From IMG/VR virus record IMGVR_UViG_2671180637_000025, positions 1 through 40,163 of that record: a stretch of DNA of 40,163 bases; one strand, given 5' to 3'. Below are positions 1-34,575 of this stretch, in pieces. The stretch is from a virus (taxonomy: Duplodnaviria; Heunggongvirae; Uroviricota; Caudoviricetes). Every line of letters starts with the position of its first letter. Position 1 is the first letter of the stretch. The notes under the pieces were generated by a model. That model was not told where the DNA came from, did not search any database, and saw only the letters and a list, made by a program, of their open reading frames with translations. Both the position numbers and the translations under genes were made by a program.

Positions 1-1251
1 GTGCTTACCGATACAAAATTAAAGAACCTCAAGCCACAGGACAAACTGTACAAAGTTTCCGATCGTGACGGGCTGTATGTAGCTGTGCTTACGTCAGGTA
101 CGGTCTCGTTTCGCTATGACTACCGTATCAACGGTCGCCGCGAAACACTGGTAATCGGGCAGTATGGGCGTGACGGTATCAGCCTGGCAGAAGCGCGAGA
201 AGAACTGATTGCTGCAAAGAAGCTGCTTAAAGCAGGCCAGTCGCCGGCTGCGGCTAAACGTGACGGTATCAAAAAGATTCGTGGTGCCGAGACGTTTGCG
301 GTACATACCGACAGTTATATGAAACACGTCATCCTGGCTGACAGTACCCGCGCAATGAAGCAGGCGGTGATCGACCGTGACATATTTCCGGTTCTTGGCA
401 ACAAAATGATGGCTGAAATTACCACATCGATGGTTCGTGATTTGTGTGACCGGATTGTCGAACGCGGTGGCCGTGCAACAGCAGTACAGGCCAGGGAGAT
501 CATCAGCAGCGTATACCGTCACGCCAATGACCGTGGTCATGGTTTGTTTAATCCTGCGGCTGACATTAAACCTTCGTCTATCGCCATATTTAAACCACGA
601 GAGCGAACACTGACACCAGAAGAAATTGGCCTGTTCTTCCGCACGCTGGATGCCATTGGTGCTATGGGCACTATGAAAATGGCTTTAAAACTGGTGCTTA
701 TCACTATGGTTCGTAAGGGCGAATTCACCAATGCAACGTGGGATGAAATAGATTTTAAAAAATGGACATGGACAATTCCTCCAGACCGCATGAAGGGAAG
801 CCGGGCGCACGTTATTTACCTGCCTAAACAGGCACAGGATATATTGGTCGGGTTGCAGATGTGCGCTGGTGGAAGTGAATATCTGGTTCCTGGTCGTTAC
901 AATTTCCGGAAGCCATTATCTAATGCCGCGCTGAACTCTCTGATCGACAGAACGGTGAAAATAATAAATGAAGATGGTGAGCATATTCAGGGCTTCACCG
1001 TACACGATATGCGCCGTACAGCCAGTACATTGTTGCATGAGGCTGGTTATCCTTCAGACTGGATTGAAAAGGCTCTGGCACATGAGCAGAAAGGTGTGCG
1101 CGCCGTATATAACAAAGCGGAATACGCCAGACAGCGCGCCTACATGTTGCAGCAGTGGGCCGATATGATTGATTCCTGGATTAACGGGGAGCATACGGAT
1201 CTGATTCCGTTCTCCCCGTCGAAGTTTGAGAAGTGGATGGCGGGGGAATAA
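1..1251 (+). CDS. int: Tyrosine recombinase, P4-family phage integrase
   Basis: 416 aa starting at GTG at the window edge; N-terminal arm-binding signature (LTDTKLKNLKP...YKVSDRDGLYV); C-terminal catalytic signature HDMRRTAST and VYNKAEY. Confidence 0.9.
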   Translation: MLTDTKLKNLKPQDKLYKVSDRDGLYVAVLTSGTVSFRYDYRINGRRETLVIGQYGRDGISLAEAREELIAAKKLLKAGQSPAAAKRDGIKKIRGAETFAVHTDSYMKHVILADSTRAMKQAVIDRDIFPVLGNKMMAEITTSMVRDLCDRIVERGGRATAVQAREIISSVYRHANDRGHGLFNPAADIKPSSIAIFKPRERTLTPEEIGLFFRTLDAIGAMGTMKMALKLVLITMVRKGEFTNATWDEIDFKKWTWTIPPDRMKGSRAHVIYLPKQAQDILVGLQMCAGGSEYLVPGRYNFRKPLSNAALNSLIDRTVKIINEDGEHIQGFTVHDMRRTASTLLHEAGYPSDWIEKALAHEQKGVRAVYNKAEYARQRAYMLQQWADMIDSWINGEHTDLIPFSPSKFEKWMAGE

Positions 1252-1449: not shown

Positions 1450-2096
1450 GCAGCACGCTCCCGCCCCTGGTTGTCTGTTGGTGACAGCGGAGAATTGCTG
1501 AATGCATTTGTTAATCCGCCAATATCCAACGCGTATCCAGGGTGTAGTTGCACTGCCGGGTCTTCGCACTGATTACCCCAAACATCGAAGCCATGAGACG
1601 ACTGGCGGGCGAATAGTTCAATGCGAGAAACATCGCCTAACAATTGCACAAGTTTTTCACGAACGACATCTGGTTTTCTTGAGTGCTCAAGCCGCGGTGC
1701 GGTAAATGACTGAACGATCCCTGCATTAATGCGCGGAGGTAGTTTTCCCTTTACCGCAAACAGGCAATCTTCACTATTGGCGCGAGTCATGTGTCCCATA
1801 CCCATAACCAGTTTATCTGGTTGTCGACTACCACATTTTATCCACGTGAATCCCTTCATGGTCATCAGACGGAATCCCCAGGCTTCAACAACTTTTAGTG
1901 CTTCGAGTGGTTGTGTTGGCACCCACCACATGGCCAACAGACAGTTTTCATCGGCCAAATCCCACACAGGAAGGCGGCAGATATCCAGCACACTCATAAC
2001 CGGATATTTAAAACCGGCACCGCGATTACCATCTGCGGCTTTATCCCGGTATACCCAGGGTGGATCTGCATAGATTAGCGTGTATTTCTTAGTCAT
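1446..2096 (-). CDS. DNA N6-adenine methyltransferase, MT-A70/phage Dam-like family (orphan, no cognate restriction gene seen)
   Basis: 216 aa; catalytic motif DPPW in LIYADPPWVYRD near the N-terminus. Confidence 0.8.
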   Translation of the reverse strand: MTKKYTLIYADPPWVYRDKAADGNRGAGFKYPVMSVLDICRLPVWDLADENCLLAMWWVPTQPLEALKVVEAWGFRLMTMKGFTWIKCGSRQPDKLVMGMGHMTRANSEDCLFAVKGKLPPRINAGIVQSFTAPRLEHSRKPDVVREKLVQLLGDVSRIELFARQSSHGFDVWGNQCEDPAVQLHPGYALDIGGLTNAFSNSPLSPTDNQGRERAA

Positions 2097-5331: not shown

Positions 5332-5916
5332 TTATTGTTTGTTTTTTTCGTTCTGGCTGATGACAAATTCAATGTAACTTTCGATCTTTGCCTTCTCTGT
5401 TTCAGGTAACAATGCGTAGCGCGAGCGGTCATAGTTGATGGTCGCAGGGTCGTGCGGGTGAATCAGTAATTCATAGCCGTGACGCCCGAATGCGGATGCA
5501 ACATTCTCCAGGGTGGAAATGGAAACGCTGACCTCATTGTTTAACAGGCGGCTGATTGTCACCTGGGCGACGCCGGATGCGCGGTGAAGTTTTCCCTGCG
5601 TTGAAAGGTCGCGGCTTTCGCTCATCCAGCGTTCCAGGTTGTGAGCCGCCAGTTGACCAATGTCGCTTGGTCCGACAGGCTGAAAACCTTCCTGAGAAAG
5701 CGAGCGATCGATATCAAGCCAGTTACGGGGTTTATTGGCGGCAGCTTCAATTTTTCGCGCAACCTGGTCGCCGATAACCTTCTTGCCAAGAGCCCAGCGG
5801 TTTACCAGATTTGCCTGAGTTCCAAGTTTTTCTGCCATCCGCGTCTGAACACCATTGAATTCACGGTCGATCAAGTCGTTGAGATTTTGCCTGCGGACGT
5901 CCTGGATACTTTTCAT
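5332..5916 (-). CDS. Immunity repressor (CI analogue) with two HTH domains and no LexA/S24-type autocleavage domain
   Basis: 194 aa; divergent from the Cro-like gene across a three-operator region; XRE-like HTHs (MAEKLGTQANLVNRWALGKK and ASGVAQVTISRLLNNEVSVSISTL); no peptidase-like C-terminus. Confidence 0.75.
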   Translation of the reverse strand: MKSIQDVRRQNLNDLIDREFNGVQTRMAEKLGTQANLVNRWALGKKVIGDQVARKIEAAANKPRNWLDIDRSLSQEGFQPVGPSDIGQLAAHNLERWMSESRDLSTQGKLHRASGVAQVTISRLLNNEVSVSISTLENVASAFGRHGYELLIHPHDPATINYDRSRYALLPETEKAKIESYIEFVISQNEKNKQ

Positions 5917-12543: not shown

Positions 12544-13139
12544 TGATGCCTGCTGAACCTAAAACCTATAAACGCAAATCAACGCAATTTAAGCCGCTCA
12601 CAGCAATGCAGGAGGCTTATTGCCAGTCATACATCAAAACGCCTGAAAACCAGACTCAGGCAGCGATTAACGCAGGATTCTCCCCAAATACAGCGGCAGT
12701 TAAAGCCAGTGTAATGATGCGCGATGAACGCATTCAAAAACGGATTGCCGAGTTGATGGAGGAGCGCAACAAACGAATGCGCGTCAGTGCTGATTACGTT
12801 CTCATGCGCCTGGTGGAGATCGACCAGATGGACGTGATTGATATCCTCAACGACGATGGAAGCCTTAAGCCAATTCGCGAGTGGCCGAAAATCTGGCGCA
12901 CTACGCTTAGCGGCTTTGATCTGTCATCGACCATCATGAACATGAATGAGGATTCGATAGAGACAATCCTCAAAAAAATTAAATGGCCTGACAAGGTGAA
13001 GAACCTTGAGCTGATTGGTAAGCACGTCGATGTCAATGCATTCAAAGAACGCCTGGATGTTAATGTAAATGTGACAATTGCTGATCGCATAGCAGCAGCC
13101 AGGAAGAGACTGAAAGAACGTCAGGATGGCAATCAGTGA
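12543..13139 (+). CDS. Terminase small subunit
   Basis: AAINAGFSPNTAAVKASVMMRDERIQKRIAEL signature; start placed at ATG 12543 (track ORF begins at TTG 12465); ATGA overlap with large subunit. Confidence 0.7.
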   Translation: MMPAEPKTYKRKSTQFKPLTAMQEAYCQSYIKTPENQTQAAINAGFSPNTAAVKASVMMRDERIQKRIAELMEERNKRMRVSADYVLMRLVEIDQMDVIDILNDDGSLKPIREWPKIWRTTLSGFDLSSTIMNMNEDSIETILKKIKWPDKVKNLELIGKHVDVNAFKERLDVNVNVTIADRIAAARKRLKERQDGNQ

Positions 13140-14611
13140 CAGATACAGCGTTATCTCCTGAAGAGCAGTTAATCGAGGATATTGCAGGGTTCACTCACGA
13201 TCCGCTTGGTTATGCCCTCTATGCTTTCCCGTGGGGGGAAGAGGGTACTGAACTGGCACATGCCACCGGCCCACGTCAGTGGCAGGCCGATGCGTTCCGA
13301 GAGATACGTGATCACCTGCAGAATCCAGAGACGCGATATCAGCCGCTTATGCTGGCACGTGCTTCTGGTCACGGTATTGGTAAATCCGCATTCATCTCAA
13401 TGCTGATCAACTGGGGCATGTCCACTTGCGAGGATTGTAAGGTCGTGGTGACCGCCAACACCGACAACCAGCTACGAACGAAGACCTGGCCTGAAATTAT
13501 CAAGTGGTCGAACCTTGCTATCACGAAAGACTGGTTCACCTGCACCGCTACCGCGATGTACAGCAATGATCCTGGACACGACAAGCGGTGGCGAGCTGAC
13601 GCAATCCCCTGGTCTGAGCACAACACTGAGGCATTCGCAGGACTACACAACGAGCGCAAACGCATCATCGTGGTATTCGATGAAGCGTCGAACATTGCGG
13701 ATCTGGTGTGGGAAGTTGCTGAGGGTGCGCTTACGGACGAAGACACTGAGATTATCTGGGTGGCGTTCGGAAACCCGACGCGTAATACTGGGCGATTCCG
13801 TGAATGTTTCCGCAAGTATAAACACCGCTGGAAAACTGCGCAGATTGACAGCCGGACGGTGGAAGGCACCAACAAACAGCAGTTGCAGAAATGGGTTGAT
13901 GACTACGGGGAAGACAGTGACTTCGTTAAAATCCGTGTGCGCGGCATATTCCCTGATGCATCTGAATTGCAGTTTATCCCTACCGGACTTACTGACGAGG
14001 CAATGAAACGGGTGATAACCGCTGCGCAGGTGGCACATGCTCCGGTGATAATCGGCGTTGACCCGGCATACTCCGGTGTTGATGACGCTGTGATATACCT
14101 GCGGCAGGGGCTGCATAGTAAGGTGCTGTGGACCGGCAACAAGACCACTGACGATCTGATTATGGCGAAGCGTATCGCTGACTTTGAAGACCAGTACCAG
14201 GCTGACGCAGTGTTCATCGACTTCGGTTACGGAACTGGTCTGAAGTCAATCGGTGACGGCTGGGGTCGTACATGGCAACTTGTTCCGTTCGGTGGCGCGT
14301 CTACTGACCCGCAGATGCTCAACAAGCGTGGGGAGATGTTCAACTCATGCAAGACATGGCTGAGGCTGGGCGGCATGCTTGATGACCAGGAAACAGCGGA
14401 CGACCTGTCGGCAGCAGAGTACAAAGTTCGAGTGGACGGTAAAATCGTTATCGAACCGAAGGAAGATATCAAAGAGCGACTTGGGCGTTCTCCTGGTAAA
14501 GGCGATGCGCTACTGCTGACGTTTGCGTTCCCTGTGTCGAAGCGTCTGCGAATTCCCGGTCAGCAGAACCAGCAAGGCAAGGCCATCACAGATTACGATC
14601 CCTATGCTTAA
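13136..14611 (+). CDS. Terminase large subunit
   Basis: 491 aa; Walker A-like ARASGHGIGKSAF; ATPase and nuclease-sized domains. Confidence 0.85.
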   Translation: MTDTALSPEEQLIEDIAGFTHDPLGYALYAFPWGEEGTELAHATGPRQWQADAFREIRDHLQNPETRYQPLMLARASGHGIGKSAFISMLINWGMSTCEDCKVVVTANTDNQLRTKTWPEIIKWSNLAITKDWFTCTATAMYSNDPGHDKRWRADAIPWSEHNTEAFAGLHNERKRIIVVFDEASNIADLVWEVAEGALTDEDTEIIWVAFGNPTRNTGRFRECFRKYKHRWKTAQIDSRTVEGTNKQQLQKWVDDYGEDSDFVKIRVRGIFPDASELQFIPTGLTDEAMKRVITAAQVAHAPVIIGVDPAYSGVDDAVIYLRQGLHSKVLWTGNKTTDDLIMAKRIADFEDQYQADAVFIDFGYGTGLKSIGDGWGRTWQLVPFGGASTDPQMLNKRGEMFNSCKTWLRLGGMLDDQETADDLSAAEYKVRVDGKIVIEPKEDIKERLGRSPGKGDALLLTFAFPVSKRLRIPGQQNQQGKAITDYDPYA

Positions 14612-14653
14612 TCCGCTGGTGGGGATAATGTCGTTGATATCCTCTGGTGAGGA

Positions 14654-14681
14654 TAAAACAAAGCCAGCTCATAGGCTGGCT
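14654..14681 (-). terminator. Intrinsic terminator for the minus-strand tRNA/small-ORF transcript
   Basis: Stem AGCCAGC / GCTGGCT with 6-nt loop; T-run on the minus strand. Confidence 0.5.
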
Positions 14682-14684
14682 GAT

Positions 14685-14698
14685 TGTGACATGTCACG
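14685..14698. repeat. Copy 2 of 14-bp motif TGTGACATGTCACG
   Basis: Exact 14-mer, same orientation as copy 1. Confidence 0.8.
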
Positions 14699-14701
14699 GC
14701 G

Positions 14702-14896
14702 CTAGAAAGTAATTTTATCGAATGCGGCGTTGATCGCTTTGGCATCCTGCACGGCACCACGCTCATCGAGTAAAGATCTTTTACTAAGCACTTCAGCTAG
14801 GCATTGAAGCTTAGTGTGGTAGAGGTTCTCGCGGCGAATCTCTTCAGCAGGAGATTGTTTCTGAATGCCTTCAACTGTCTTCGTCATAATATTCAC
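14702..14896 (-). CDS. Hypothetical small protein (64 aa), opposite strand to the late genes
   Basis: ORF only; same strand as the adjacent tRNA. Confidence 0.35.
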   Translation of the reverse strand: MNIMTKTVEGIQKQSPAEEIRRENLYHTKLQCLAEVLSKRSLLDERGAVQDAKAINAAFDKITF

Positions 14897-15078
14897 CTTA
14901 AAAAAATGCCCGGACGAACTGGAAGCAATGAGTTATGCCTTCCGTGGCTGTACTGGTTTACAGCATGAAGTCATCGCAATGGCGTCCTGCTGTAAAAAGG
15001 GCGGTGATAGTCCTTCAAGGGAAACCATCACCGCCAAGCACCTGGAACTTCTGGCATCACGGTCCTTAGGCGTGATTC

Positions 15079-15155
15079 TGGCGTGGCATGCAGGATTCGA
15101 ACCTGCGACCAACCGCTTAGAAGGCGGTTGCTCTGTCCAACTGAGCTAATGCCAC
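15079..15155 (-). tRNA. tRNA-Arg (anticodon UCU), argU-like, phage-internal
   Basis: 77 nt GTGGCATTAGCTCAGTTGGACAGAGCAACCGCCTTCTAAGCGGTTGGTCGCAGGTTCGAATCCTGCATGCCACGCCA; perfect 7-bp acceptor stem, D stem GCTC/GAGC, anticodon stem ACCGC/GCGGT with loop CTTCTAA, T stem GCAGG/CCTGC with loop TTCGAAT, encoded CCA. Confidence 0.85.
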
Positions 15156-15477
15156 AACGCTGAGAGCACTTAGCCTGTTAAGGCGCCACACTTTGTCGCG
15201 GCTCCATAAATGCTCTCATCGTTGTACCCTCGTCTCTTCCGAGGCGTCACACCGAATCGCCGGGGTGGTGAATCCCCGTGCGCGGAATAAAACCGCTCGA
15301 CTTGCACATTCCGGCTACCTGGTTCGTTTGCCCGAGCAAGGGAGGGTGCCCCTTAAACGTACCCAGACCGCTATCGGCGCATGTGCCATACGCCGTACTA
15401 CTCAAAATAAAAGCTCACTCCACCTGTTCAATTTAACGACAAGCCAGTCAGGTTAATAACCGGAATGAATCCTTTAG

Positions 15478-15492
15478 TTACCTGAAGGGTAA
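15478..15492. promoter_or_regulatory. Operator-like site TTACCTGAAGGGTAA upstream of the virion operon
   Basis: Perfect TTACC-N5-GGTAA about 90 bp upstream of ATG 15583. Confidence 0.5.
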
Positions 15493-15582
15493 TAATTCGT
15501 GCGTTAAATGTCAACCATCTACGATAAATAAAACATATGTGGTTAAATTGGTAATAATTTAATTGCGTACGGAGTCATTGAT

Positions 15583-15789
15583 ATGTGCATGGGTAGCTCA
15601 CCATCAGTGCCTGCAACACCAGAAGTTCAGGCAGCACCACAGGAGCAGGATGCCGCCGTTGTTGATGCCCGCGACGAAGAAACTCGTCGCCGTCGCGCTG
15701 CTGCTGGTCGTAGTTCTACGCTGCTTACCGGTTCTCAGGGCGACACATCAACCGCTAATACCAGCGGTAAAACGCTGCTTGGTCAGTAA
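15583..15789 (+). CDS. Small virion protein, T7 gp6.7-like
   Basis: 68 aa; N-terminal MC... and basic, Ser/Thr-rich composition recalled for T7 gp6.7; sits just before the portal as in T7. Confidence 0.45.
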   Translation: MCMGSSPSVPATPEVQAAPQEQDAAVVDARDEETRRRRAAAGRSSTLLTGSQGDTSTANTSGKTLLGQ

Positions 15790-21289: not shown

Positions 21290-23760
21290 TGGCTATCAGT
21301 TGGATCCAGCCCAGCTTTGCCGGTGGTGAGATTGGACCGTCGTTGTACGGTCGTATCGACATGGCGAAGTACCAGGTGGCATTGCGCAAGTGCGATAACT
21401 TTATCGTGCGGCAGTATGGCGGCGTTGAGAATCGACCTGGTACGCGTTTTGTCGGTGCCGCCAAATACCCAAATCGGAAATGCCGCCTGATCCCGTTCCA
21501 GTTCTCGACGGTTCAGACTTATGCTCTGGAGTTCGGACACCAGTACATGCGCGTTATCAAAGATGGTGCGTTGGTGCTGAACAGCAGCAATGTTATTTAT
21601 GAAATTGCCACGCCATATACTGAAGCCGATCTGTTCCGAATTAAATTCACGCAAAGCGCAGACGTGCTTACGCTGGTTCATCCGGCATACCCGCCGAAAG
21701 AGTTGCGCCGCTATGCGCATGACAACTGGCAACTGGTTGATGTGGTAACGAAGAACGGGCCATTTGAAGATATCAATATTGACGAGTCAGTGACGGTTTA
21801 TGCCAGCGCCAGCACCGGGACAATTACGTTAACGGCAAGCGCCTCTATTTTTGGCGCGGAGCAGGTAGGCAAATTGTTCTATCTGGAACAGCCAGCAGTG
21901 GATTCTGTGCCGGTATGGGAAACCAGTAAGAGTACGTCGATTGGCGATATTCGCCGTGCAGACAGTAACTACTATCGCGCCGTTACAGCAGGCAAAACAG
22001 GTACTTTGCGCCCTTCTCATACAGAAGGCACATCATGGGATGGTTGGGGCGGATCCGGTGATGATGATACTGGCATTGAGTGGGAATATCTGCACAGTGG
22101 TTTTGGCATTGCCCGTATCACTGCTGCAAATGGAACTACTGCAACTGCCGAGGTGATTTCCTATATCCCTTCGCAGGTAGTTGGTGAGGATAATGCCAGC
22201 TATAAATGGGCTAAATATGCCTGGAATAGTGTTAACGGTTATCCTGGCACTGTTGTTTATTATCAACAACGTCTTTACTTCGCCGCATCGACTGCGTTCC
22301 CTCAGACTATCTGGGCCAGCCGTACTGGGGATTATAAGGATTTTGGCAAAAGCAATCCTACGCAGGATGACGATAGAATTATCTACACCTATGCCGGGCG
22401 TCAGGTTAATGAGATCCGCCACCTGATTGATGTTGGTTCGCTGGTGGCGCTGACTTCCGGAGGTGAGTACGTCATCACCGGCGACCAGAACAAAGTGTTA
22501 ACCCCATCATCATTTGCATTCAGCTCTCAGGGATCAAATGGCTCAAGCAACGTCCCACCAATTGCCGTGGCGAATATTGCTCTGTTCGTCCAGGAGAAAG
22601 GCAGTGTTGTCCGTGATCTGGCCTATTCATTCGATGTTGACGCCTATCAGGGGAACGACCTTACTATCCTTGCCAATCATCTTTTTCAGAAGCACAGCAT
22701 TGTTGACTGGTGCTTCTCGATTGTCCCTTACTCCAGTGCCTTCTGCATTCGTGATGACGGTAAATTACTGGTGATGACCTATTTGCGTGATCAGCAGGTT
22801 TTTGCATGGGCACCACAATCCAGTACCGGAAAATATGAAAGCACATGCAGTATCAGCGAAGGTAATGAAGATGCGGTGTATTTCGTCGTTAACCGAACCG
22901 TTAACGGGCAAACAGTGAGATACATCGAGCGACTGTCCAGCCGTTTATTTACCAGCGATGAAGATGCTTTCTTTGTTGATTCTGGCCTTAGCTATGATGG
23001 AAGAAATACGTCTGACAGAACGATGATCATCACTGGTGGTTCTGGCGAATGGGATTACCGCGCGGAATATACAATCAGTGTTTCTGGTGGTGCGTACTTC
23101 ACCAGTAGTGATGTTGGTGCGCAACTACAGTTTCCTTATACCGGAACCGATCCTGATACTGGCGATGAAGTGTCAAAAAAATTACGTTGCGACATTGTTT
23201 CTGTAACCAGCAATACCGCTGTAGTGGTTCGTGCTAACAGGAACGTCCCGCCATCCCTCAGGAATGTGGACACCACGAACTGGCAGATGGCGCGCCGGAC
23301 ATTTGGAGGCCTGTCTCATCTTGAGGGCCAGACCGTAAACATTCTTTCTGATGCGAATGTTGAGCCACAGAAAGTTGTTTCCGGAGGTGCCGTCACACTG
23401 GAATCTCCGGGGGCTGTAGTGCACATCGGCCTGCCAATAACTGCTGAATTCGAAACACTGGATATCAACATTAACGGACAGGAAACGCTGCTGGACAAAA
23501 AACAGGTGATCCCGTCCGTTACTCTGGTTGTGAATGCCAGCCGCGGCATCTGGGCGACTACGCCCGGCGGTAAATGGTACGAATATCCACAGCGTGAATT
23601 CGAGTTCTACGATGATCCTGTTGATGACGCTACCGGAAAAGTAGAAGTGAAACTGGACAGTAACTGGGGCAAAAACGGACGTGTAAGAATCCGTCAGCTT
23701 GACCCGTTGCCGCTGTCTGTTCTTGCCGTTATTCCTCGCCTTACTGTTGGGGGATTCTGA
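21289..23760 (+). CDS. Tail tubular protein B-like (T7 gp12-like)
   Basis: 823 aa; size and order; start overlaps upstream stop. Confidence 0.55.
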   Translation: MAISWIQPSFAGGEIGPSLYGRIDMAKYQVALRKCDNFIVRQYGGVENRPGTRFVGAAKYPNRKCRLIPFQFSTVQTYALEFGHQYMRVIKDGALVLNSSNVIYEIATPYTEADLFRIKFTQSADVLTLVHPAYPPKELRRYAHDNWQLVDVVTKNGPFEDINIDESVTVYASASTGTITLTASASIFGAEQVGKLFYLEQPAVDSVPVWETSKSTSIGDIRRADSNYYRAVTAGKTGTLRPSHTEGTSWDGWGGSGDDDTGIEWEYLHSGFGIARITAANGTTATAEVISYIPSQVVGEDNASYKWAKYAWNSVNGYPGTVVYYQQRLYFAASTAFPQTIWASRTGDYKDFGKSNPTQDDDRIIYTYAGRQVNEIRHLIDVGSLVALTSGGEYVITGDQNKVLTPSSFAFSSQGSNGSSNVPPIAVANIALFVQEKGSVVRDLAYSFDVDAYQGNDLTILANHLFQKHSIVDWCFSIVPYSSAFCIRDDGKLLVMTYLRDQQVFAWAPQSSTGKYESTCSISEGNEDAVYFVVNRTVNGQTVRYIERLSSRLFTSDEDAFFVDSGLSYDGRNTSDRTMIITGGSGEWDYRAEYTISVSGGAYFTSSDVGAQLQFPYTGTDPDTGDEVSKKLRCDIVSVTSNTAVVVRANRNVPPSLRNVDTTNWQMARRTFGGLSHLEGQTVNILSDANVEPQKVVSGGAVTLESPGAVVHIGLPITAEFETLDININGQETLLDKKQVIPSVTLVVNASRGIWATTPGGKWYEYPQREFEFYDDPVDDATGKVEVKLDSNWGKNGRVRIRQLDPLPLSVLAVIPRLTVGGF

Positions 23761-24224
23761 TGATCGACGTTCAAATTATTCCCGCTACCGAAGAGCATCT
23801 TCAGATGATTTTGCCGGATGTTCGTCAGGCTGATATTGACGAACTGTATGCGGTATCACTGATGACTACCGAAGATGCGCTGCGTGTTGGTCTTCGCACT
23901 GCGACTATGGCCTGGTCAGGGTTCGCGAACGGAGAACTGGTAACCATGTTTGGTGTATCTCCGGCGTCAATGATCGGTGGCAATGGTACGCCCTGGCTGG
24001 TCGGGACCAGCCGTATTGAAAAATATCAGAAGACATTTCTTCGCCACTGCCGCCCTGTGTTGCAGCAGATGCTGGCAGTTTATCCGCGCCTGGAAAACTA
24101 TGTCGACGAGCGAAACCATGTTGCCAAAGCATGGCTGCACTGGCTTGGATTCAGGATTGAGGAAGCCGCGCCTTATGGTGCTCTTGGTCTTAATTTCCAC
24201 AGATTTCACATGGAGAGAAAATAA
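23760..24224 (+). CDS. Internal virion protein, gp13-like
   Basis: 154 aa; position in the gp11-gp16-like series. Confidence 0.4.
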   Translation: MIDVQIIPATEEHLQMILPDVRQADIDELYAVSLMTTEDALRVGLRTATMAWSGFANGELVTMFGVSPASMIGGNGTPWLVGTSRIEKYQKTFLRHCRPVLQQMLAVYPRLENYVDERNHVAKAWLHWLGFRIEEAAPYGALGLNFHRFHMERK

Positions 24225-24769
24225 TGTGCGATCCGGTTATTGCTGGTGGCGCAATGCTCGCCATGAGTGGCATTCAGGCATACACCCAGTACCAACAGGG
24301 AAAATATGCCTCGAAGGTTGCAGAAGCGAACGCAGATATAGCCACTGCTCAGGCAAATGATGCAATAAACAGAGGTAACGCTGAAGCTGAGCAACGGCGC
24401 AGAGAAACCCGACAGCGGCTTGGTACACAGGCGGCGACAATGGGGGCGACCGGCGCTGATTTATCTACCGGTAACGCGCTGGATATATTTGGCGACACTG
24501 CCCAGTTTGGCGCCCTTGATTCGCTGACGACGGTGAATAACGCGCAACGCGAGGCTTACGGTTATCAGGTTCAGGCTGCCAATTATAAAGCAGAAGCCAG
24601 TTCAGCCCGTAAACAGGGGAATGTGGGAGCAGCAACAACATTGCTCACTGCGCCTCTGAAGGCATACGGTGCGTACCAGATGTTTGGTGGGACGTGGAGT
24701 CCGTTTACTCAAAGCACTCCTGCGCCAATCGGGGCAGCAGCAGGAACCAGATTACCCGGAGGATTATAA
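24224..24769 (+). CDS. Internal virion protein, T7 gp14-like
   Basis: 181 aa; N-terminus MCDPVIAGGAMLAMSGIQAY resembles recalled T7 gp14 MCWAAAIPIAISGAQAI. Confidence 0.55.
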   Translation: MCDPVIAGGAMLAMSGIQAYTQYQQGKYASKVAEANADIATAQANDAINRGNAEAEQRRRETRQRLGTQAATMGATGADLSTGNALDIFGDTAQFGALDSLTTVNNAQREAYGYQVQAANYKAEASSARKQGNVGAATTLLTAPLKAYGAYQMFGGTWSPFTQSTPAPIGAAAGTRLPGGL

Positions 24770-27282
24770 TGCCAGTCGTACCAACAGTATCCGGACGTCA
24801 GGTTGAGAGTCGTGGAGTTCAGTCAGCAGGCTTGCAGACGTTTTCTCAGCCAGGTATTGGTGATGCTTTTGTTCGGGCAGGGACAGAGGCAATTGATGTT
24901 TTGGGGCAGGCAAAACAGCGTGCCAATATCGCTCTGGCTCAGGAGGCATCTCTTAACCTCAGTCAGATAAGCAGCGATCTGCTGAATAATCCTGAAACAG
25001 GTTTGCTTAACCTGAAAGGGAAAAATGCTATTGGAAAAGGTCAGGAGTATACGCAGCAGTTTGATGCTCAGATCGAACAACTGGCTATGTCGCTGCCGGA
25101 TGAACAGGCTCGTAATGCTTTCATGCAGCAGGCACAGCAGCAGCGCATTCAGTTCACTACGCAGGCCGGGAGGTACGAGATAGGGCAAATAAATGCCTAC
25201 GAAGAAGGCCAGTTTCAGGCTACGCTGCTGAACAATGGTAAAAATGCCGCAGCATTGTATGGCGACAACGCCGCATACGTATTGGCTAATAAGCAAACTT
25301 TCCAGCAAATTGAGGATTACGGCATTGCACATGGCTGGATTGACGAGCAAATCCAGGCCAAGAAAATCGAGTTTAAAGAAGCAACAGCAAAAGCAACTGC
25401 TCAAAATGCTATTGGAGCAAACTATCTTCAGGTAAGACAGCAAAACGGCGAGTTAAGCGATACTGCTGCTGGATCTCGCCGTGCTGTAGCAGATAGTGGC
25501 TCTTCCGATCGTACCCGCGGTATACGCAACAATAACCCCGGCAATCTTGAATACAGCAAAACTAATCCGTGGGTTGGGCAGACTGGTGATGATGGGCGCT
25601 TTGCCAAATTCGAAACCCCTGAACACGGTATTCGTGCATTAGGGCGGAACCTGATGTCGTATCAGCGCCAGGGTATTGATACCGTTAGTGAGATAATTAA
25701 TCGCTGGGCACCGCCTACTGATAAAAATGACACTATGTCGTATATCAAAGCAGTGTGCGAACAACTTGGCGTTTCTGCTGATGAGCCTCTCGATGCATCA
25801 AATCCTGATACCCTGAAGGCGCTTTGTGCAGCCATTATCCATCATGAAAACGGTAGCCAGCCATACAGTGATCAGCAGTTAACTGCAGGTGTTAGTGCTG
25901 CGCTTGGGCTTTCTCAGCTACCGACAAAAAATAAACGTTATACCGGTGTAGCCTGGTTCGATGCTTTAAGTGAATCAGATCAGGCCAGCGTGTTGCGACA
26001 GACTGATGCACTAGCCAGACAACAGCAGGCTGAATATAAAACGATGCTCGACAGCCGGGTTCGCGATGCGACGGCTGCGTATATGCGTGGCGTTGAATTT
26101 CCTAACCCACCTGGTGAGGATGATTTTATTGCAGCTTATGGAGTCAGAGAAGGAAACCTGCGATATACCGAGTTTAAGAATACGCAGATCGCCGGACAGT
26201 ATATAGGCTCTTTCCGCAACATGCCGACAAGCAACATTACAGCATATGTTGAGCAATTACGCCCGGATACTGGTGAGACAGGGGAGGGGTATGCGGCACG
26301 CGCAGCTCTTTATGACAACGTTGTTTCGGCTGCAAATCAGGTGATAAAGCAGCGGCAGTCGGATCCTGTGCAGTTCTCTCTTGCCTCCGGACAGGCAAAG
26401 CCTATCGACATGAGCAATAAGGATAACTTTGGACAGAGCGTTGCCTTGCGTGCCGCTCAGGTCAGTGACCTTGCTAAGTCATATGGCACTCCACTGACGT
26501 TCTTTTCCAAAGACGAGGCCAATCAGATCGGTGTTTTCTTTCGTGATGCTCCAGTTTCCCAACAGGCAGCATATCTCGATACCATCAGGCAGAGCACTGG
26601 TGGTGGGCAGGTGTATATGTCAGCACTACAGCAGATCAGTGCCAACGCTCCATCTGCTGCCGTTGCCGGGATACTGATGGACAAGCCTGGTGGTATTTTG
26701 GCAGAAAAAAACTGGTTTAATCCGGATGTTTCCGTGTCTCCTGAAACCGCTGCGCAGACAATTCTTGCTGGCGCGGCGGCTCGTAAAGGTACTGATGATG
26801 CGAAAGGTATTACGATGCCTAAAGATGCTGATCTTCGCCTTGAGTTTTCTGACATGGTGAAGGATGCATTTGCTGGTGATGCTCAGGGGGCATCAATGGC
26901 ATACGAGATCGCAAAGGACTATTACGCTGGTGTGATGGCGAAAAAAGGCGTGGTATCAGGCGAAATTGACAATGATGTCTGGAAACAGGCTGTTAACGTA
27001 GCTACAGGTGGCGTGCATGACTATAACGGAATGGGGAATGTCCTTTTGCCGTGGGGAATGTCTGCAGAGCAATTCGATAAGCAGGTTAATCAGGCTTGGA
27101 ATGAACAAGTTGTCGGCACCGGGATAAAAACACCGCCTGGTCAGTATGGTTTGCAAAGTTATGGTGATAGTCAGTACCTGGTGAAACTTGGTACTGGTTA
27201 TCTGCTGAAAGATGATGGTTATCCTGTTGTTCTTGATCTGACACAGAAGCGTCAGAGATTCTCCGGAGATATTCCGCAATGA
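24769..27282 (+). CDS. Internal virion / ejection protein, gp15-like
   Basis: ATG 24769 overlapping upstream TAA, RBS GGAGGA; 837 aa; conserved block RGIRNNNPGNLEY...IINRWAPPTDKNDT that I cannot assign. Confidence 0.55.
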   Translation: MPVVPTVSGRQVESRGVQSAGLQTFSQPGIGDAFVRAGTEAIDVLGQAKQRANIALAQEASLNLSQISSDLLNNPETGLLNLKGKNAIGKGQEYTQQFDAQIEQLAMSLPDEQARNAFMQQAQQQRIQFTTQAGRYEIGQINAYEEGQFQATLLNNGKNAAALYGDNAAYVLANKQTFQQIEDYGIAHGWIDEQIQAKKIEFKEATAKATAQNAIGANYLQVRQQNGELSDTAAGSRRAVADSGSSDRTRGIRNNNPGNLEYSKTNPWVGQTGDDGRFAKFETPEHGIRALGRNLMSYQRQGIDTVSEIINRWAPPTDKNDTMSYIKAVCEQLGVSADEPLDASNPDTLKALCAAIIHHENGSQPYSDQQLTAGVSAALGLSQLPTKNKRYTGVAWFDALSESDQASVLRQTDALARQQQAEYKTMLDSRVRDATAAYMRGVEFPNPPGEDDFIAAYGVREGNLRYTEFKNTQIAGQYIGSFRNMPTSNITAYVEQLRPDTGETGEGYAARAALYDNVVSAANQVIKQRQSDPVQFSLASGQAKPIDMSNKDNFGQSVALRAAQVSDLAKSYGTPLTFFSKDEANQIGVFFRDAPVSQQAAYLDTIRQSTGGGQVYMSALQQISANAPSAAVAGILMDKPGGILAEKNWFNPDVSVSPETAAQTILAGAAARKGTDDAKGITMPKDADLRLEFSDMVKDAFAGDAQGASMAYEIAKDYYAGVMAKKGVVSGEIDNDVWKQAVNVATGGVHDYNGMGNVLLPWGMSAEQFDKQVNQAWNEQVVGTGIKTPPGQYGLQSYGDSQYLVKLGTGYLLKDDGYPVVLDLTQKRQRFSGDIPQ

Positions 27283-29081
27283 GTTACTTTGGCCTTAATC
27301 CAGTAAACCAGAATCAGCAGCTTGACGAAGCAGCATCAAATCCAGCTGGCTTTAACAGCGATGTTGGTTTTTTCGACAATGCTGCAGGAGCGGCATTGTC
27401 TGGTTTGTACTCCGGGCTGGTGGCAAAGCCAGATCAGTTGCTATGGGCAGGGATGGATAAAATCGTATCCCCGATTGCTCAGTTTGTTAACGAAAACACC
27501 TCGCTCAATGACACTTCAGTTTCATACATTGCTGAGCAGAGAAAACTAGCAGAGCAGCAGGTTAAGCGGCTGACGCCTGATGCCGCGACAACCGGAACCG
27601 CCGGGCAGGTCCTTTATGGGTTGTTCGATATGGGCGGGCAGGCTGTTGTCGGTACAACGCTCGGTGGTCCGGTCGGAGGTGCTGCGGCGGTAACTTCGCT
27701 ACAGGGTTTTTCTGAGTTTGAACGGCTGACAGCACAGGGTGTTGATTTCAGGACGGCGCAGGAAGCGGGATTAGTGCTGGGTATTACTGCTGGTGCCGGA
27801 ACACTGATCCCTATGAGCCTCGGGTTACGTGCTGGTGGTGCGCTGGCGGAAGGTGTGGCGGCTCAGCTTGCACGGACGGGTGAGAGTTCAGTGCGACGCG
27901 CCGCAGCAACAGCAGTACGTGCAACGCCAGATATTGCCTATGCCGCAGGTACAAATATTGCGTTCGGTATGGCACAGCGTGGGCTTACTGCAAAAACGCT
28001 TCGTGATGGTGGCTATAGCGAAATGGCTAACCAGTATGATGTGTTGGATCGACAGGCAATTGCTATTGATGCTGTTCTTGGGGTGGCGTTTGGTGGTGTC
28101 GGCAGATTTATTAACTCTCGCGGCGAGTCTACAAGCGCCCCAAATTTTTCACCAGTTGATATCGATGCTGCACTGGCGGCGAATGCCGCTCATCATGCTG
28201 AAATTGATATTGCTCCCGGCGTGCCGATCAACGTGCTTTCGCGCAATTCTCACATTCAGGCTCTGCGAAAAGCTATGTCTGATGTTAGCCAGGGGAGACC
28301 TGTAGACGTTGCCAGCATTGTTGAGCCTGCATCTTTCAGTGAAATTCCTGGGCGCAAGAATCTGCTGTCTCAGGCAGTTAATGAGGCTCTGTCATCTGTA
28401 GATGATGGAGTAACGGCGCGTGCTATCGAAAATCGGTTGCTTGAAGAACAGGCTGCGCAGCTTTTGCCGCGTGGCGATAGACAGGTTTACCAGTCTGAAA
28501 TCGCTAATAGCCAACGAATTATCGACAATCTCACTGAACAGCGCGCACAAATTCTTGCAGAAGAGTCAACTGGTAGCGGTAAAGCTTTGTCTCGTGCTCG
28601 ATCAGATAAACAGGTCAGACTTCGCGATATTGACCAACGAATCCGGCAGGCACAAGAACGCCTGGAATTTTCCCGTAACGCGTTGGCACCGCATGAGCCT
28701 GGCGGTCAGTTTTTTGAAGCTCGAGCAGAACTGGCACGGAGACAGCAGGCTGAAAGTGAACTTAATGCTCAGGCTGTTTCATTCTATAAAACAGCAGAGG
28801 TCAGGACGCCAGACGAAGTAGCTCCTTTTGAGCCCGGTAAGATATTGCAACAGGCAGAACAAAAGATGATGGCAGATCCGGCAGGAGATATTGATCTGCG
28901 CATAGCTGAAGACTCGCTGCTTGAATCACCTGACATGATAATCACCGTGCTGGATGATGATGGTAATCCACAATCGCGCAGTGCGCGTGAAGTACTGGAT
29001 GAAGCGAACATGGAAAGTGAGCAGGCAATACAGGATTCCAGCCTGTTTGATGTCGCTGTGGCGTGTTTCTTGAGAGGTTAA
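27279..29081 (+). CDS. Internal virion / ejection protein (gp16-like, part 1)
   Basis: 600 aa; Gly/Ala-rich N-terminal region; ATGA overlap with upstream gene. Confidence 0.5.
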   Translation: MSYFGLNPVNQNQQLDEAASNPAGFNSDVGFFDNAAGAALSGLYSGLVAKPDQLLWAGMDKIVSPIAQFVNENTSLNDTSVSYIAEQRKLAEQQVKRLTPDAATTGTAGQVLYGLFDMGGQAVVGTTLGGPVGGAAAVTSLQGFSEFERLTAQGVDFRTAQEAGLVLGITAGAGTLIPMSLGLRAGGALAEGVAAQLARTGESSVRRAAATAVRATPDIAYAAGTNIAFGMAQRGLTAKTLRDGGYSEMANQYDVLDRQAIAIDAVLGVAFGGVGRFINSRGESTSAPNFSPVDIDAALAANAAHHAEIDIAPGVPINVLSRNSHIQALRKAMSDVSQGRPVDVASIVEPASFSEIPGRKNLLSQAVNEALSSVDDGVTARAIENRLLEEQAAQLLPRGDRQVYQSEIANSQRIIDNLTEQRAQILAEESTGSGKALSRARSDKQVRLRDIDQRIRQAQERLEFSRNALAPHEPGGQFFEARAELARRQQAESELNAQAVSFYKTAEVRTPDEVAPFEPGKILQQAEQKMMADPAGDIDLRIAEDSLLESPDMIITVLDDDGNPQSRSAREVLDEANMESEQAIQDSSLFDVAVACFLRG

Positions 29082-33123: not shown

Positions 33124-33810
33124 TCAGAAGAACCATGCCTTGTCGTTGATGTACTCCGCGTGCGTCTGGATATCACGCAGGCATTTGCTCACACCGACGA
33201 TGTAGCAGAACATGGTGGTCAGTTCCGCCGCCGCGCCCGATACATCATGCCCGTCGTCCTGCAACTGGTTTAGCAGATTCATCAGCAGTGAGTTCTCCGT
33301 CAGGCCGAGAACACCAGACGGCGAGTGAATCAGGCTACGGTAGCCTGGCTTCAGTGGGGCACTGTAGGTTTTGTTCTCTATCTTCATTGCCTGCATCACT
33401 GCTGATGCTGTGGCGTTGGCTACCTGGTCGGCAACCATCTTTATGCGTTCTTCCTGCGGGAGCGAGTTTTTAATGTAACTTCCGGTGCGGCGGATCTGAG
33501 GAAGAACCTCACCTGTAACCCATTTACGAAAGCGGTAGGGGATAGTGCCTGGTGTCACTGCGTCGCGGCAGCGGAGGATCAGTGTGTAGAGGCCTGACTC
33601 GTTGATAATATTGGTTTCGCCTTGACGGCCTAAGTTAAATTTAGCCCTTTCATCATCATCAAGAGATTTTATTGACATAGTGGGGTTTGTCAGTTGAAGA
33701 GCTTTAATAACGTCTTTGGCAACAAACCAAGGATTTCCATCAATAACAATGGCTCGAATGGTTGCTTCTGATTCAAAATGAAAAACAGATGGGGTTACGT
33801 TAGCAGTCAT
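33124..33810 (-). CDS. Antirepressor, Bro-N-type N-terminal domain plus C-terminal domain shared with the neighbouring small ORF
   Basis: Start at ATG 33810 behind AGGTGA (track extension to 33963 runs through a terminator); Bro-N signature VFHFESEATIRAIVIDGNPWFVAKDV. Confidence 0.7.
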   Translation of the reverse strand: MTANVTPSVFHFESEATIRAIVIDGNPWFVAKDVIKALQLTNPTMSIKSLDDDERAKFNLGRQGETNIINESGLYTLILRCRDAVTPGTIPYRFRKWVTGEVLPQIRRTGSYIKNSLPQEERIKMVADQVANATASAVMQAMKIENKTYSAPLKPGYRSLIHSPSGVLGLTENSLLMNLLNQLQDDGHDVSGAAAELTTMFCYIVGVSKCLRDIQTHAEYINDKAWFF

Positions 33811-33962
33811 AGTGATCACCTTTGTAGTTAGGTTAATCACCACTACCGACGCCAATCGGTTGGTGGTGAACTGTGCAGGGTTGGCGTAACCGGCTACAAA
33901 GGACCCGGCGCACCTTTCGGTGCCCCCACACAGCCCACCATAGAATAGGTGCGCTTTACACA

Positions 33963-33982
33963 TAAAAAAACCGCTTATGCGG
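33963..33982 (-). terminator. Intrinsic terminator between the two antirepressor genes
   Basis: Stem CCGC / GCGG with loop ATAA followed by eight T on the minus strand. Confidence 0.55.
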
Positions 33983-34076
33983 CATATGTGCCTCTGTAGT
34001 AATCCGGGACGCCAATCCCGGCACTGGATTTTGCCAGTGCCCGATTACTATGGCACAAGAGGAGTGCGATGTAAAT

Positions 34077-34122: not shown

Positions 34123-34380
34123 TTATCTGGTTTGTTTTCGTAATTGTTCGGCACAATAGTCGAGATGTGTTTGCAGATCCCGCATAGACATCTGTGAGCT
34201 GGTGACGTAGTTAATCAGTGCAGTCAGTTCGGCAAGTGGGCCATCGACATTAAATCCATCCTTATCGAGATCCAGGAGTAATTTCATCAAGTGCGATCCC
34301 TCCACTAGTGATCTGACGCCTCCCGGCGTGTGAATCCTTTCGGTAAATCCGTCTTCCAGTGGATAGTGATACTGCTGCAT
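34123..34380 (-). CDS. Small antirepressor-domain protein (85 aa), SOS-regulated candidate
   Basis: Start at ATG 34380 behind GGAGAAG (track extension to 34503 would cross the LexA box and operator); by-eye ~40-45% identity to the C-terminal ~80 aa of the adjacent antirepressor. Confidence 0.55.
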   Translation of the reverse strand: MQQYHYPLEDGFTERIHTPGGVRSLVEGSHLMKLLLDLDKDGFNVDGPLAELTALINYVTSSQMSMRDLQTHLDYCAEQLRKQTR

Positions 34381-34399
34381 CTTATCTTCTCCATGCAAT

Positions 34400-34419
34400 A
34401 ACTGTATATTTATACAGTA
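34400..34419. promoter_or_regulatory. LexA (SOS) box AACTGTATATTTATACAGTA
   Basis: 19/20 match to the recalled consensus TACTGTATATATATACAGTA; 20 bp upstream of ATG 34380 on the minus strand. Confidence 0.8.
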
Positions 34420-34456
34420 GCAAATAATTTGTTTGCTATCCAGCACGTTTTGCAAA

Positions 34457-34471
34457 TTACCCGAAAGGTAA
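34457..34471. promoter_or_regulatory. Operator-like site TTACCCGAAAGGTAA in the divergent region between small antirepressor gene and tailspike
   Basis: Perfect TTACC-N5-GGTAA; GGTAA half-site also at 34517..34521. Confidence 0.5.
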
Positions 34472-34575
34472 TATCTGTTCGTATTTATAGGTTGTCTATC
34501 CATATGTGGTTTTTCGGGTAATAGAATAACCGGATATGCGGCGCAACGGGTGCTGCGACTATCTGGAGAATTAAC

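Follow-up and report, generated by a model that had tools for sequence, protein, structure and literature searches.

Organization of the Locus between terL and the Virion Operon

The DNA considered here, referred to below as the window, comprises positions 1 to 40,163 of the IMG/VR virus record IMGVR_UViG_2671180637_000025 and belongs to a podophage of the phiV10/epsilon15 type (genus Uetakevirus). The element in question is a minus-strand RNA module that lies between terL (13136..14611) and the virion operon, which begins at 15583 with a gene of the epsilon15 gp3 family (phrog_831), in a region 94-97% identical to phiV10, O157 typing phages 9 and 10, TL-2011b, and others. Because terL and the virion operon flank it, the locus is not an attachment site, as had already been stated in a preliminary description made from the letters of the window. 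From 15514 down to 14654, a single predicted transcription unit can be read, in which a promoter and operator are followed by an RNA of ~320 nucleotides (nt), a tRNA-Arg(UCU), a trailer, a terminator (T1), a second, damaged terminator (T2), a cargo open reading frame (ORF), and a third terminator (T3), as listed in Table 1.

The tRNA named in the preliminary description is borne out by both programs applied to 15079..15155: the Rfam tRNA model (RF00005) gives 73.3 bits against a gathering score of 29, and ARAGORN returns tRNA-Arg with the anticodon tct at position 35. The same 77-nt gene is already annotated in relatives (e.g., typing phages 9 and 10, phiv142-3, and SPC32H). The adjoining spacer is GC-rich as described, with a GC (guanine plus cytosine) fraction of 0.57-0.59 over 15100..15400 vs. 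0.36 over 15400..15600, and its local inverted repeats turn out to be the helices of a conserved RNA with compensatory changes. The terminator ascribed to the unit is present as minus-strand terminator-like hairpins at 15035..15000 and 14681..14662. The antisense ORF of 64 amino acids exists (14702..14896), with a likely start at ATG 14887 that shortens it to 61 residues. The element itself had been confined to 15160..15470; it starts near 15479, the probable transcription start, and its conserved modules run past the tRNA to T1 (14994).

A codon-usage moron together with an undefined structured RNA, or a remnant of an inserted element, had been offered as explanations. Covariation, the outcome set beforehand as upholding a structured RNA, was found, and this RNA is intact and under constraint rather than the remnant of an inserted element. 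Together with the tRNA and the terminator, it forms one conserved module, not a tRNA moron accompanied by leftover DNA. The hedged interpretation was therefore right in essentials and missed two things, namely that the locus is a single module of a widespread RNA family and that it is under repressor control.

A Conserved, Pseudoknotted RNA Precedes the tRNA

In the predicted fold, the ~320 nt of RNA upstream of the tRNA are strongly conserved and pseudoknotted, and consist of a 5′ hairpin (P0), a core (P1-P6), and a long closing helix (P7). P1 is followed by P2a and P2b around a variable P3, by P4 around a variable hairpin and P5, by the pseudoknot, and by P6 and P7. The structure was refined by hand on an alignment of 18 sequences, in which 98.4% of the cells are paired and compensatory changes affect 12 pairs (56 cells); none of 500 shuffles was as good, and slid controls reached at most three such pairs. 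The pseudoknot itself covaries, with CACC:GGUG becoming AACC:GGUU in lambdoid copies, and P7 has compensatory changes in five of its 18 pairs and an insert that ranges from ~30 to 100 nt across representative sequences. A further pseudoknot, pairing CUUG of the P3 loop with the invariant CAAG, is conceivable. G·U pairs, of which several are invariant, fill about 116 of the 918 paired cells; read from the plus strand they would become A·C, which places the RNA on the minus strand, as is the tRNA.

A covariance model of the proposed family (R1) has its sole match in the window at 15220..15398(-), with 136.7 bits; R1 was built on an RNAalifold consensus that mis-drew P1/P2 and is suited to homology search, not as a structure model. 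The Rfam check suggested with the preliminary description succeeded for the tRNA, and Rfam 15 has no match within 15156..15480 at E<=10. Similarly, at gathering thresholds nothing in Rfam 15 covers the element in 14 homologous loci, and no meaningful match is obtained at E<=10 on the lambdoid leader of mEp460 (locus L002); the Rfam matches on the window and these loci are limited to the tRNA and to C4 and isrK elsewhere. The plus-strand ORF of 87 amino acids over the spacer (15193..15456), which the preliminary description had regarded as a non-coding artefact, is indeed rejected as a gene, having no Pfam or PHROG match and frame-shifting indels among its homologues that are not multiples of three.

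Table 1. Features of the predicted minus-strand unit and of its operator in the window
Feature	Position	Strand	Details
Operator palindrome TTACCTGAAGGGTAA	15478..15492		TTACC-N5-GGTAA; overlaps the -10 box and the transcription start
Copies of TTACC-N5-GGTAA	5198, 5260, 5972, 6020, 6357, 8279, 8341, 12511, 12529, 15478, 33044, 34077, 34457		
Predicted sigma-70 promoter	15486..15514	-	-35 TTGACA 15514..15509, 17-nt spacer, -10 TACCCT 15491..15486; read from sequence
5′ leader hairpin P0	15410..15475	-	AAAGGAUUCAUUCC ... GUCGUUAAAU ... GGAGUGAGCUUU; copy of the P7-type module
Conserved RNA core, helices P1-P6	15228..15398	-	R1 covariance model, RNAalifold, pair counts
Near-invariant 19-mer GGUAGCCGGAAUGUGCAAG	15319..15301	-	Within the core
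Pseudoknot	CACC 15270..15267 with GGUG 15253..15250	-	P5 loop with downstream strand
Hairpin P6	15244..15228	-	Loop GAAGAGA
Long closing helix P7	15156..15226	-	CAACGAUGAGAGCAUU ... AGUGCUCUCAGCGUUG, lineage-variable insert; ends exactly at the tRNA 5′ end
tRNA-Arg(UCU)	15079..15155	-	77 nt, CCA encoded; fills the tRNA slot of the module; ARAGORN and Rfam tRNA
Trailer hairpin AUCACGccuaaggacCGUGAU	15056..15076	-	AUCACG...CGUGAU; after tRNA or tRNA-like domain in many lineages
Intrinsic terminator T1	14994..15035	-	GGCGGUGAUGG...CUAUCACCGCC and CUUUUU; 14 pairs, hairpin -22 kcal/mol
T2 remnant	14901..14921	-	Intact in phiV10 (GCCCGGttcgCCGGGC and U7); 8-nt deletion in the stem in the window; alignment with phiV10
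Cargo ORF	14702..14887	-	61 amino acids from ATG 14887 (64 from GTG 14896); Shine-Dalgarno sequence AAGGTGA
Terminator T3	14654..14681	-	Hairpin 14681..14662; closes the unit tail-to-tail with terL; phiV10 terminator annotated here

Hairpin modules resembling P7 (CAAC-nGAAAGCGC...GUCGUUAAAU...GGAGUGCGCUUCCAG-UUG) occur upstream of the core, at 15410..15475 in the window and at 2960..3020 in L172, a divergent relative from a metagenome, and some lineages (L017, L041, L067, and similar loci) have them past T1 as well. The P7-type module also precedes the core in Klebsiella, Tyrion, and PAT1 copies, and the leader thus looks as if it were built from repeated modules.

The tRNA Slot, the Terminators, and the Cargo Gene

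The tRNA-Arg(UCU) occupies the identical junction between GCGUU and GUGG in ~32 of 132 homologous loci; in P1-type copies a tRNA-Ile(CAU) lies immediately upstream of the element and not in the slot, and ~80 of the 132 loci contain no detectable tRNA. Most of the tRNA-free loci have a slot domain with an acceptor-like helix (GUGGUGA...UCACCAC), a D-like arm, a T-like arm, and a long insert in place of the anticodon arm. These stems were identified by eye; compensatory changes occur in the T-like arm (GCCGG/CCGGC, GCUGG/CCAGC, and GUCGG/CCGAC) and in the D-like arm (GCGC/GCGC and GCCC/GGGC), and both the D arm and the T arm are perfect in L172. ARAGORN reports no tRNA in these domains, nor does Rfam at E<=10 in that of mEp460 (L002 2650..3350), so the lambdoid domain is at most a tRNA mimic and not a tRNA. 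On the simplest reading of these sequences, it is a signal for RNase P processing that would be preserved in the slot.

T1 is homologous across lineages, and a terminator-like site is found in 93 of 128 distinct downstream contexts, at a median of 324 nt past the 19-mer. The T1 loop motif YCCUU(G) (~15015..15025) recurs in the P3 loop (~15335..15345) and resembles an anti-Shine-Dalgarno sequence; the identity of the two loops extends to 17 nt in PAT1-type copies, and the motif could be a shared docking or binding site. In lambdoid leaders, another conserved long hairpin (ACAAAACAGAGAAGA...UCUUCUCUGUUUUGU, enclosing ~60 nt) lies past T1, at L002 2690..2830(-), L172 2330..2440(-), and 1860..1960 of the SfIV locus (L286), where it precedes the first gene of the early-left promoter PL (phrog_204, YfdP-like), and the untranslated leader amounts to ~600 nt in total.

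The cargo ORF of the window resembles the C-terminal part of phrog_4846 (E 2.7e-16). Between identical flanks, phiV10 has the unrelated gene p03 of 123 amino acids, and other relatives have DUF2829, DUF551, or other genes; the small ORF is hence one of several unrelated, swappable cargo genes behind the terminators.

Promoter, Operator, and Expected Timing

Transcription of the unit is inferred to start near 15479, from a promoter whose -35 box and spacing are conserved in ~25 distinct Uetakevirus copies; in other phages, analogous and better promoters precede the RNA (e.g., TTGACA-16-CATAAT). A consensus promoter scan lists none in 14550..15650, the TTGACA/TACCCT promoter included. The operator-like site noted in the preliminary description belongs to a set of 13 TTACC-N5-GGTAA palindromes in the window (10 of them exact), against 0.76 expected and with none of 100 shuffles as high. 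These copies cluster round a helix-turn-helix repressor ORF (5332..5916, minus strand) and other likely promoter regions; others precede terS or are close to the ant/C4 region. This arrangement suggests a single repressor acting on many promoters, possibly including that of the terminase genes, and the homologous site of epsilon15 is annotated "repressor / lysogeny". Silence in the lysogen and activation at induction or infection are therefore expected of the unit, and, because its promoter appears to be repressor-controlled, it is read as part of the early rather than the late program.

Distribution among Phages, Prophages, and Plasmids

A sensitive blastn search with 15156..15500 retrieved 86 phage records, among them all phiV10-like phages, the lambdoid phages mEp460, cdtI, 2H10, Stx2c, and some Stx2a converting phages (82-83% over 240 nt), and P1, P7, D6, SJ46, and RCS47 (~79% over 163 nt); further carriers are phages of Klebsiella and Enterobacter and one assigned to Stenotrophomonas in its record. 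A copy is present in 1839 of 5426 complete E. coli genomes, and 551 places are on plasmids, mostly of P1-like size; among the matches listed in E. coli, the sole annotations are the neighboring tRNA-Arg or, once, a hypothetical protein. An origin as a host gene was rejected, given that the E. coli matches lie on P1-like plasmids or at variable chromosomal sites (whose contexts were not inspected) in 34% of genomes, and their placement points to mobile-element contexts rather than to a core gene.

Searching with the 19-mer GGUAGCCGGAAUGUGCAAG retrieved 120 viral contigs. Independently of the 19-mer, a pattern for hairpin P1 found 31 loci in species-representative genomes, of which 23 were confirmed by R1 and 22 of these carry the exact 19-mer; all 23 belong to Enterobacterales except one 1.7-kb contig binned as Bacillota. 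That contig (L161, JAIIAN010000430.1, from a "Bacillota bacterium" metagenome-assembled genome, 1753 nt) bears a full enterobacterial-type copy of 151.7 bits and is most likely mis-binned. In metagenomes, R1 matched 18 contigs at >=132 bits and two divergent ones at 78-84 bits; the loose pattern used there mostly hits by chance, with 22 of the first 100 loci fitting R1 at E<=0.01, one of them (18.6 bits) doubtfully.

In lambdoid carriers the order is as follows: a cI-like gene and its terminator are followed by a sigma-70 promoter with the phage's own operator palindromes, by the RNA 30-100 nt further on, by T1, and by the early-left genes. At least 10 different promoter/operator types stand upstream of the RNA, which is always on the strand of the nearby early promoter. 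The whole genome of mEp460 has no annotated N gene, a Q-like gene, and one copy of the RNA, and neither there nor in the window is there a second copy on the PR side. In P1, trnI and ban enclose a short form limited to P1-P6, in an operon marked as C1-controlled in the P1 record; just past the RNA (L004 2897..2960, minus strand), an upstream ORF of 14 codons, MPIISDIQHAWVEC, ends in UAAUG and overlaps the ban start codon, which suggests translational coupling to ban.

Hypothetical ORFs are annotated over the module in mEp460 (gp36/gp37, L002 2749..3302), phiV10 (p04, L001 2672..2923), and Tyrion (gp54, L007 1850..2011). Those of mEp460 and phiV10 are drawn on the strand opposite to the RNA, and all are probably mis-annotations.

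Other small RNAs accompany the carriers. In the window, a C4 antisense RNA (79.5 bits) and isrK (76.8 bits) at 33859..34040(-) adjoin an Ant-type anti-repressor (Bro-N, phrog_130) and, with the ORFs 33124..33963(-) and 34123..34503(-), make up a module like immI of P1. C4-type RNAs also occur in P1 and in the lambdoid leader-RNA carriers mEp460 and WGPS2, and one leader-RNA prophage (L095 686..1522) has STnc100 and a cluster of five tRNAs ~10 kb away.

Natural Deletion and Replacement Variants

Comparison of PAT1 (L008) with epsilon15 (L005) identifies epsilon15 as a deletion derivative of a PAT1-like ancestor, in which the P3 and T1 loops shared a 17-nt repeat (UUCCCUUGAUGCU...) and a single recombination event between the two copies deleted most of the core together with the slot and the 5′ arm of T1. 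This single-step deletion accounts for the weak remnant of 17.9 bits and for the "RNaseIII" feature (L005 2031..2130) in the epsilon15 record.

SfIV (L286) retains the tRNA-like domain, T1, and the PL genes but has no core; its leader is occupied instead by a boxB-boxA site of the rrn type, genes on the opposite strand, and a small ORF. The near-perfect rrn-type site, i.e., the hairpin AGCGCCC-NNNN-GGACGCU followed by GCUCUUUAACAAUCUGG, recurs in the early-left leaders of some carrier prophages: it lies at 840..880 in SfIV, ~129 nt past the 19-mer in L092, and 743 nt upstream of the core in L150. No N-like protein is evident in the prophages with such a leader site. A boxA/Nus site in the 3′ strand of P7 (UGCUCUCA, alike at 5-6 of 8 positions) was considered and rejected, as that strand is base-paired and covaries freely.

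Possible Function and Competing Explanations

Tentatively, and with less than even confidence, the RNA is read here as a cis-acting leader that controls elongation in the manner of the put RNA of phage HK022, allowing polymerase to pass T1 and T2. The put RNA suppresses termination without a phage protein, and its activity is independent of tethering via the nascent transcript (PMC9378689). By analogy, the 5′ RNA would fold once transcribed from the derepressed early promoter and would alter the polymerase that made it, leading to readthrough of T1 and T2 or, in lambdoids, of the terminator between PL and the whole early-left operon, and downstream genes would be expressed from this promoter only. 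RNase P, cutting where the tRNA or tRNA-like domain begins, would mature the tRNA and part the leader from the downstream RNA; as with untethered put, such a cut need not abolish the effect, and the tRNA would additionally supply AGA decoding. If so, the family might be a class of phage RNA not described before, by which the transcribing polymerase is reprogrammed; it would add to put a second antitermination system that needs RNA alone and has an unrelated structure, a possibility advanced here with reserve.

Several observations favor such a leader. In at least 10 unrelated contexts, a cI-like gene and its terminator are succeeded by a sigma-70 promoter and, 30-100 nt past it, by the core. 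This is the position of nutL and putL, and the core's promoter-proximal placement across unrelated immunity contexts supports a role in elongation control. A strong terminator separates the RNA from every PL gene in lambdoid carriers, and phiV10-type phages maintain intact and diverse cargo ORFs with good Shine-Dalgarno sequences behind T1 and T2; with no annotated N gene in mEp460 and terminators before all downstream genes, readthrough appears to be needed. The distance between core and terminator varies from ~100 to 400 nt and tolerates an intervening tRNA, which fits a processive mechanism rather than a riboswitch type. Moreover, the near-invariant junctions, including the 19-mer exact in 22 of 23 loci, point to contact with a conserved host machine, and the boxB-boxA of SfIV in a leader lacking the core suggests that this leader region is a site for elongation signals.

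Other observations weigh against a put-like action, which is itself pure inference. In size the RNA exceeds put by a factor of 3-5, and R1 detects no homology to put in HK022 22000-29000, a stretch within which putL was not located; each phage has one copy with none on the PR side. T1 is itself conserved within the module, and this, like the compensatory changes in the D-like and T-like arms of the slot, fits a discrete processed RNA at least equally well. Uetakeviruses have a single small cargo ORF downstream, and readthrough beyond T3 would run antisense into the terminase genes. In P1, the short form has no obvious terminator before ban; boxA and the core are not strict alternatives, because both are present in L092 and L150; and epsilon15 remains a functional phage despite the deletion of its core and of the T1 5′ arm.

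The discrete processed RNA is the basis of a second explanation, which is only slightly less likely than the put-like leader and not mutually exclusive with it: a stable-RNA operon in which RNase P at the slot frees a trans-acting RNA of ~200-330 nt that accumulates early. Such an RNA would bind or titrate a conserved host factor (e.g., a component of defense, translation, or RNA decay); T1 would be the end of the operon, downstream genes would receive leak-through transcription only, and in P1 the 3′ processing of trnI would set the 5′ end of the RNA. What comes after P7 is a tRNA or a domain resembling one, joined at a constant junction (U at -1, G at +1); the pseudo-tRNAs keep their acceptor-, D-, and T-like stems with compensatory changes after the loss of the anticodon arm, with L172 as the perfect case; T1 and the trailer hairpin are conserved within the module; the Uetakevirus unit is almost free-standing; and the boxA of some leaders is of the rrn type typical of stable-RNA operons. 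GOLLD and ROOL are phage-associated RNAs that adjoin tRNAs, and the 3′ end of MALAT1 is made by RNase P cleavage at a tRNA-like structure. If the slot is processed in this way, the RNA may be the first long bacterial RNA with a 3′ end made by RNase P at a tRNA-like structure. However, antisense targets in the window are limited to chance-level matches of 11-12 nt, with a single 12-mer as the longest, and complementarity to C4 or isrK is not above that of shuffles. A trans-acting RNA would also leave unexplained why so many independent immunity contexts have the element interposed between PL and the whole early-left operon, and RNase P cleavage is unproven at a lambdoid slot domain that the Rfam tRNA model does not recognize at E<=10.

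An attenuator, in which the core senses, as an aptamer would, a host metabolite, a tRNA, or a protein of phage or host origin and thereby decides whether transcription stops at T1, so that the early-left genes would be gated by host state, is improbable. It would account for the order of promoter, pseudoknotted domain with near-invariant junctions, intrinsic terminator, and genes, and the YCCUU(G) loops of P3 and T1, with up to 17 identical nt in PAT1-type copies, would permit cross-talk between core and terminator. However, the 100-400 nt between core and T1 contain a tRNA or long insert, no conserved alternative partner for the T1 stem is seen, the core of P1 occurs without T1, and no phage protein is common to the flanks examined in P1, lambdoids, and Uetakeviruses.

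It is equally improbable that the leader merely serves the tRNA or transcript stability, which would make the unit the codon-supply moron of the preliminary description. This much of that proposal stands: the module is shaped like a tRNA operon, the tRNA is real, and AGA and AGG are enriched in the ORFs of the window, at 7.3 and 3.8 per 1000 codons (8.9/5.4 in non-virion genes vs. 5.8/2.3 in terminase and virion genes), or about three times the usage of E. coli K-12. However, tRNA, RNA, and terminator are one module, and the ~80 of 132 loci that have no functional tRNA keep the core at 70-100% identity with compensatory changes, so the function of the RNA cannot be codon supply. Stability alone would require far less than the invariant loops and junctions and the pseudoknot, and the neighboring tRNA of P1 is a different one on the other side of the element. 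AGA decoding is thus a reasonable role for the tRNA, not for the RNA. Two further ideas, a CsrA sponge (GGA motifs) and a tRNA-anticodon "specifier" (AGA in the GAAGAGA loop), were set aside, their support being limited to short motif matches.

Finally, the absence of any RNA, with the locus being a plus-strand protein gene (mEp460 gp37, phiV10 p04, or Tyrion gp54) or a DNA site such as pac or ori, is hardly credible: annotated hypothetical ORFs do overlap the element in several records, but the plus-strand ORF of the window has no Pfam or PHROG match, homologues show frame-shifting indels, and the compensatory changes, the G·U pairs, and the invariable agreement of the element's strand with the nearby early promoter speak for an RNA.

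Significance

If these readings hold, P1, Shiga-toxin (Stx) phages, and E. coli prophages carry a large, constrained, and unannotated RNA that is the first part of early operons to be transcribed and could explain how early-left genes, including those for excision and recombination, are expressed past a strong terminator without an N gene, with a bearing on prophage induction and the mobility of Stx phages. At the same time, several opposite-strand "hypothetical protein" ORFs are flagged as probably spurious. The covariation, the pseudoknot, and the natural deletion and swap variants (epsilon15 and SfIV) make the family directly testable.

Relation to Known Systems

To our knowledge, this RNA family has not been described. 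The searchable literature contains no text with the 19-mer or P1-hairpin strings as DNA or RNA; no description of the element was found in work on P1 ban/trnI, put, lambdoid leaders, or tRNA-like structures and RNase P; and the papers on the Pas small RNA, P1 delta-hfq, and ZX5 do not mention it. Its absence from Rfam 15, from the annotations examined, and from this literature supports, without proving, that the family is new.

The closest functional parallel is provided by putL and putR of HK022, which are likewise phage RNA just past a repressor-controlled early promoter, in a lambdoid showing no N gene and with terminators beyond; the element shares this promoter-proximal, pre-terminator position in an early operon. 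The put RNAs are ~70 nt long, with two stems and two copies (L and R), whereas the new RNA has ~200-330 nt, at least seven helices, and one copy, and differs further in its pseudoknot, its tRNA slot, and its own conserved terminator; its antitermination is suggested by position. R1 has no match in HK022 22000-29000 (7 kb), a stretch within which putL was not located.

GOLLD and ROOL, reportedly described by Weinberg et al. in 2009 and 2017 as large "ornate" phage-associated noncoding RNAs, are similar in being large and complex prophage RNAs typically beside, and sometimes enclosing, tRNA genes; their Rfam models do not match here, and the new RNA is smaller, found in Enterobacterales hosts, and fixed just past early promoters. 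Among RNAs matured by RNase P, the C4 RNA of P1/P7, the CI RNA of P4, and MALAT1-mascRNA also have a non-tRNA transcript end set at a tRNA or tRNA-like structure; in the present case cleavage is suggested by anatomy, and the upstream product is far larger than, and unrelated to, C4 or CI. The nutL site of lambda and the boxB-boxA of rrn operons represent the same place in the early-left leader, which SfIV, L092, and L150 fill with a near-perfect rrn-type boxA; on the unit strand of the window, there is no boxA (GCUCUUUA). Lastly, argU-like tRNA genes of phages encode the same tRNA and have been annotated as lone genes, whereas here the tRNA sits in a fixed slot of a larger RNA module, by which phage-borne argU-like tRNAs are recast as cargo of that module rather than as free-standing codon-usage morons.

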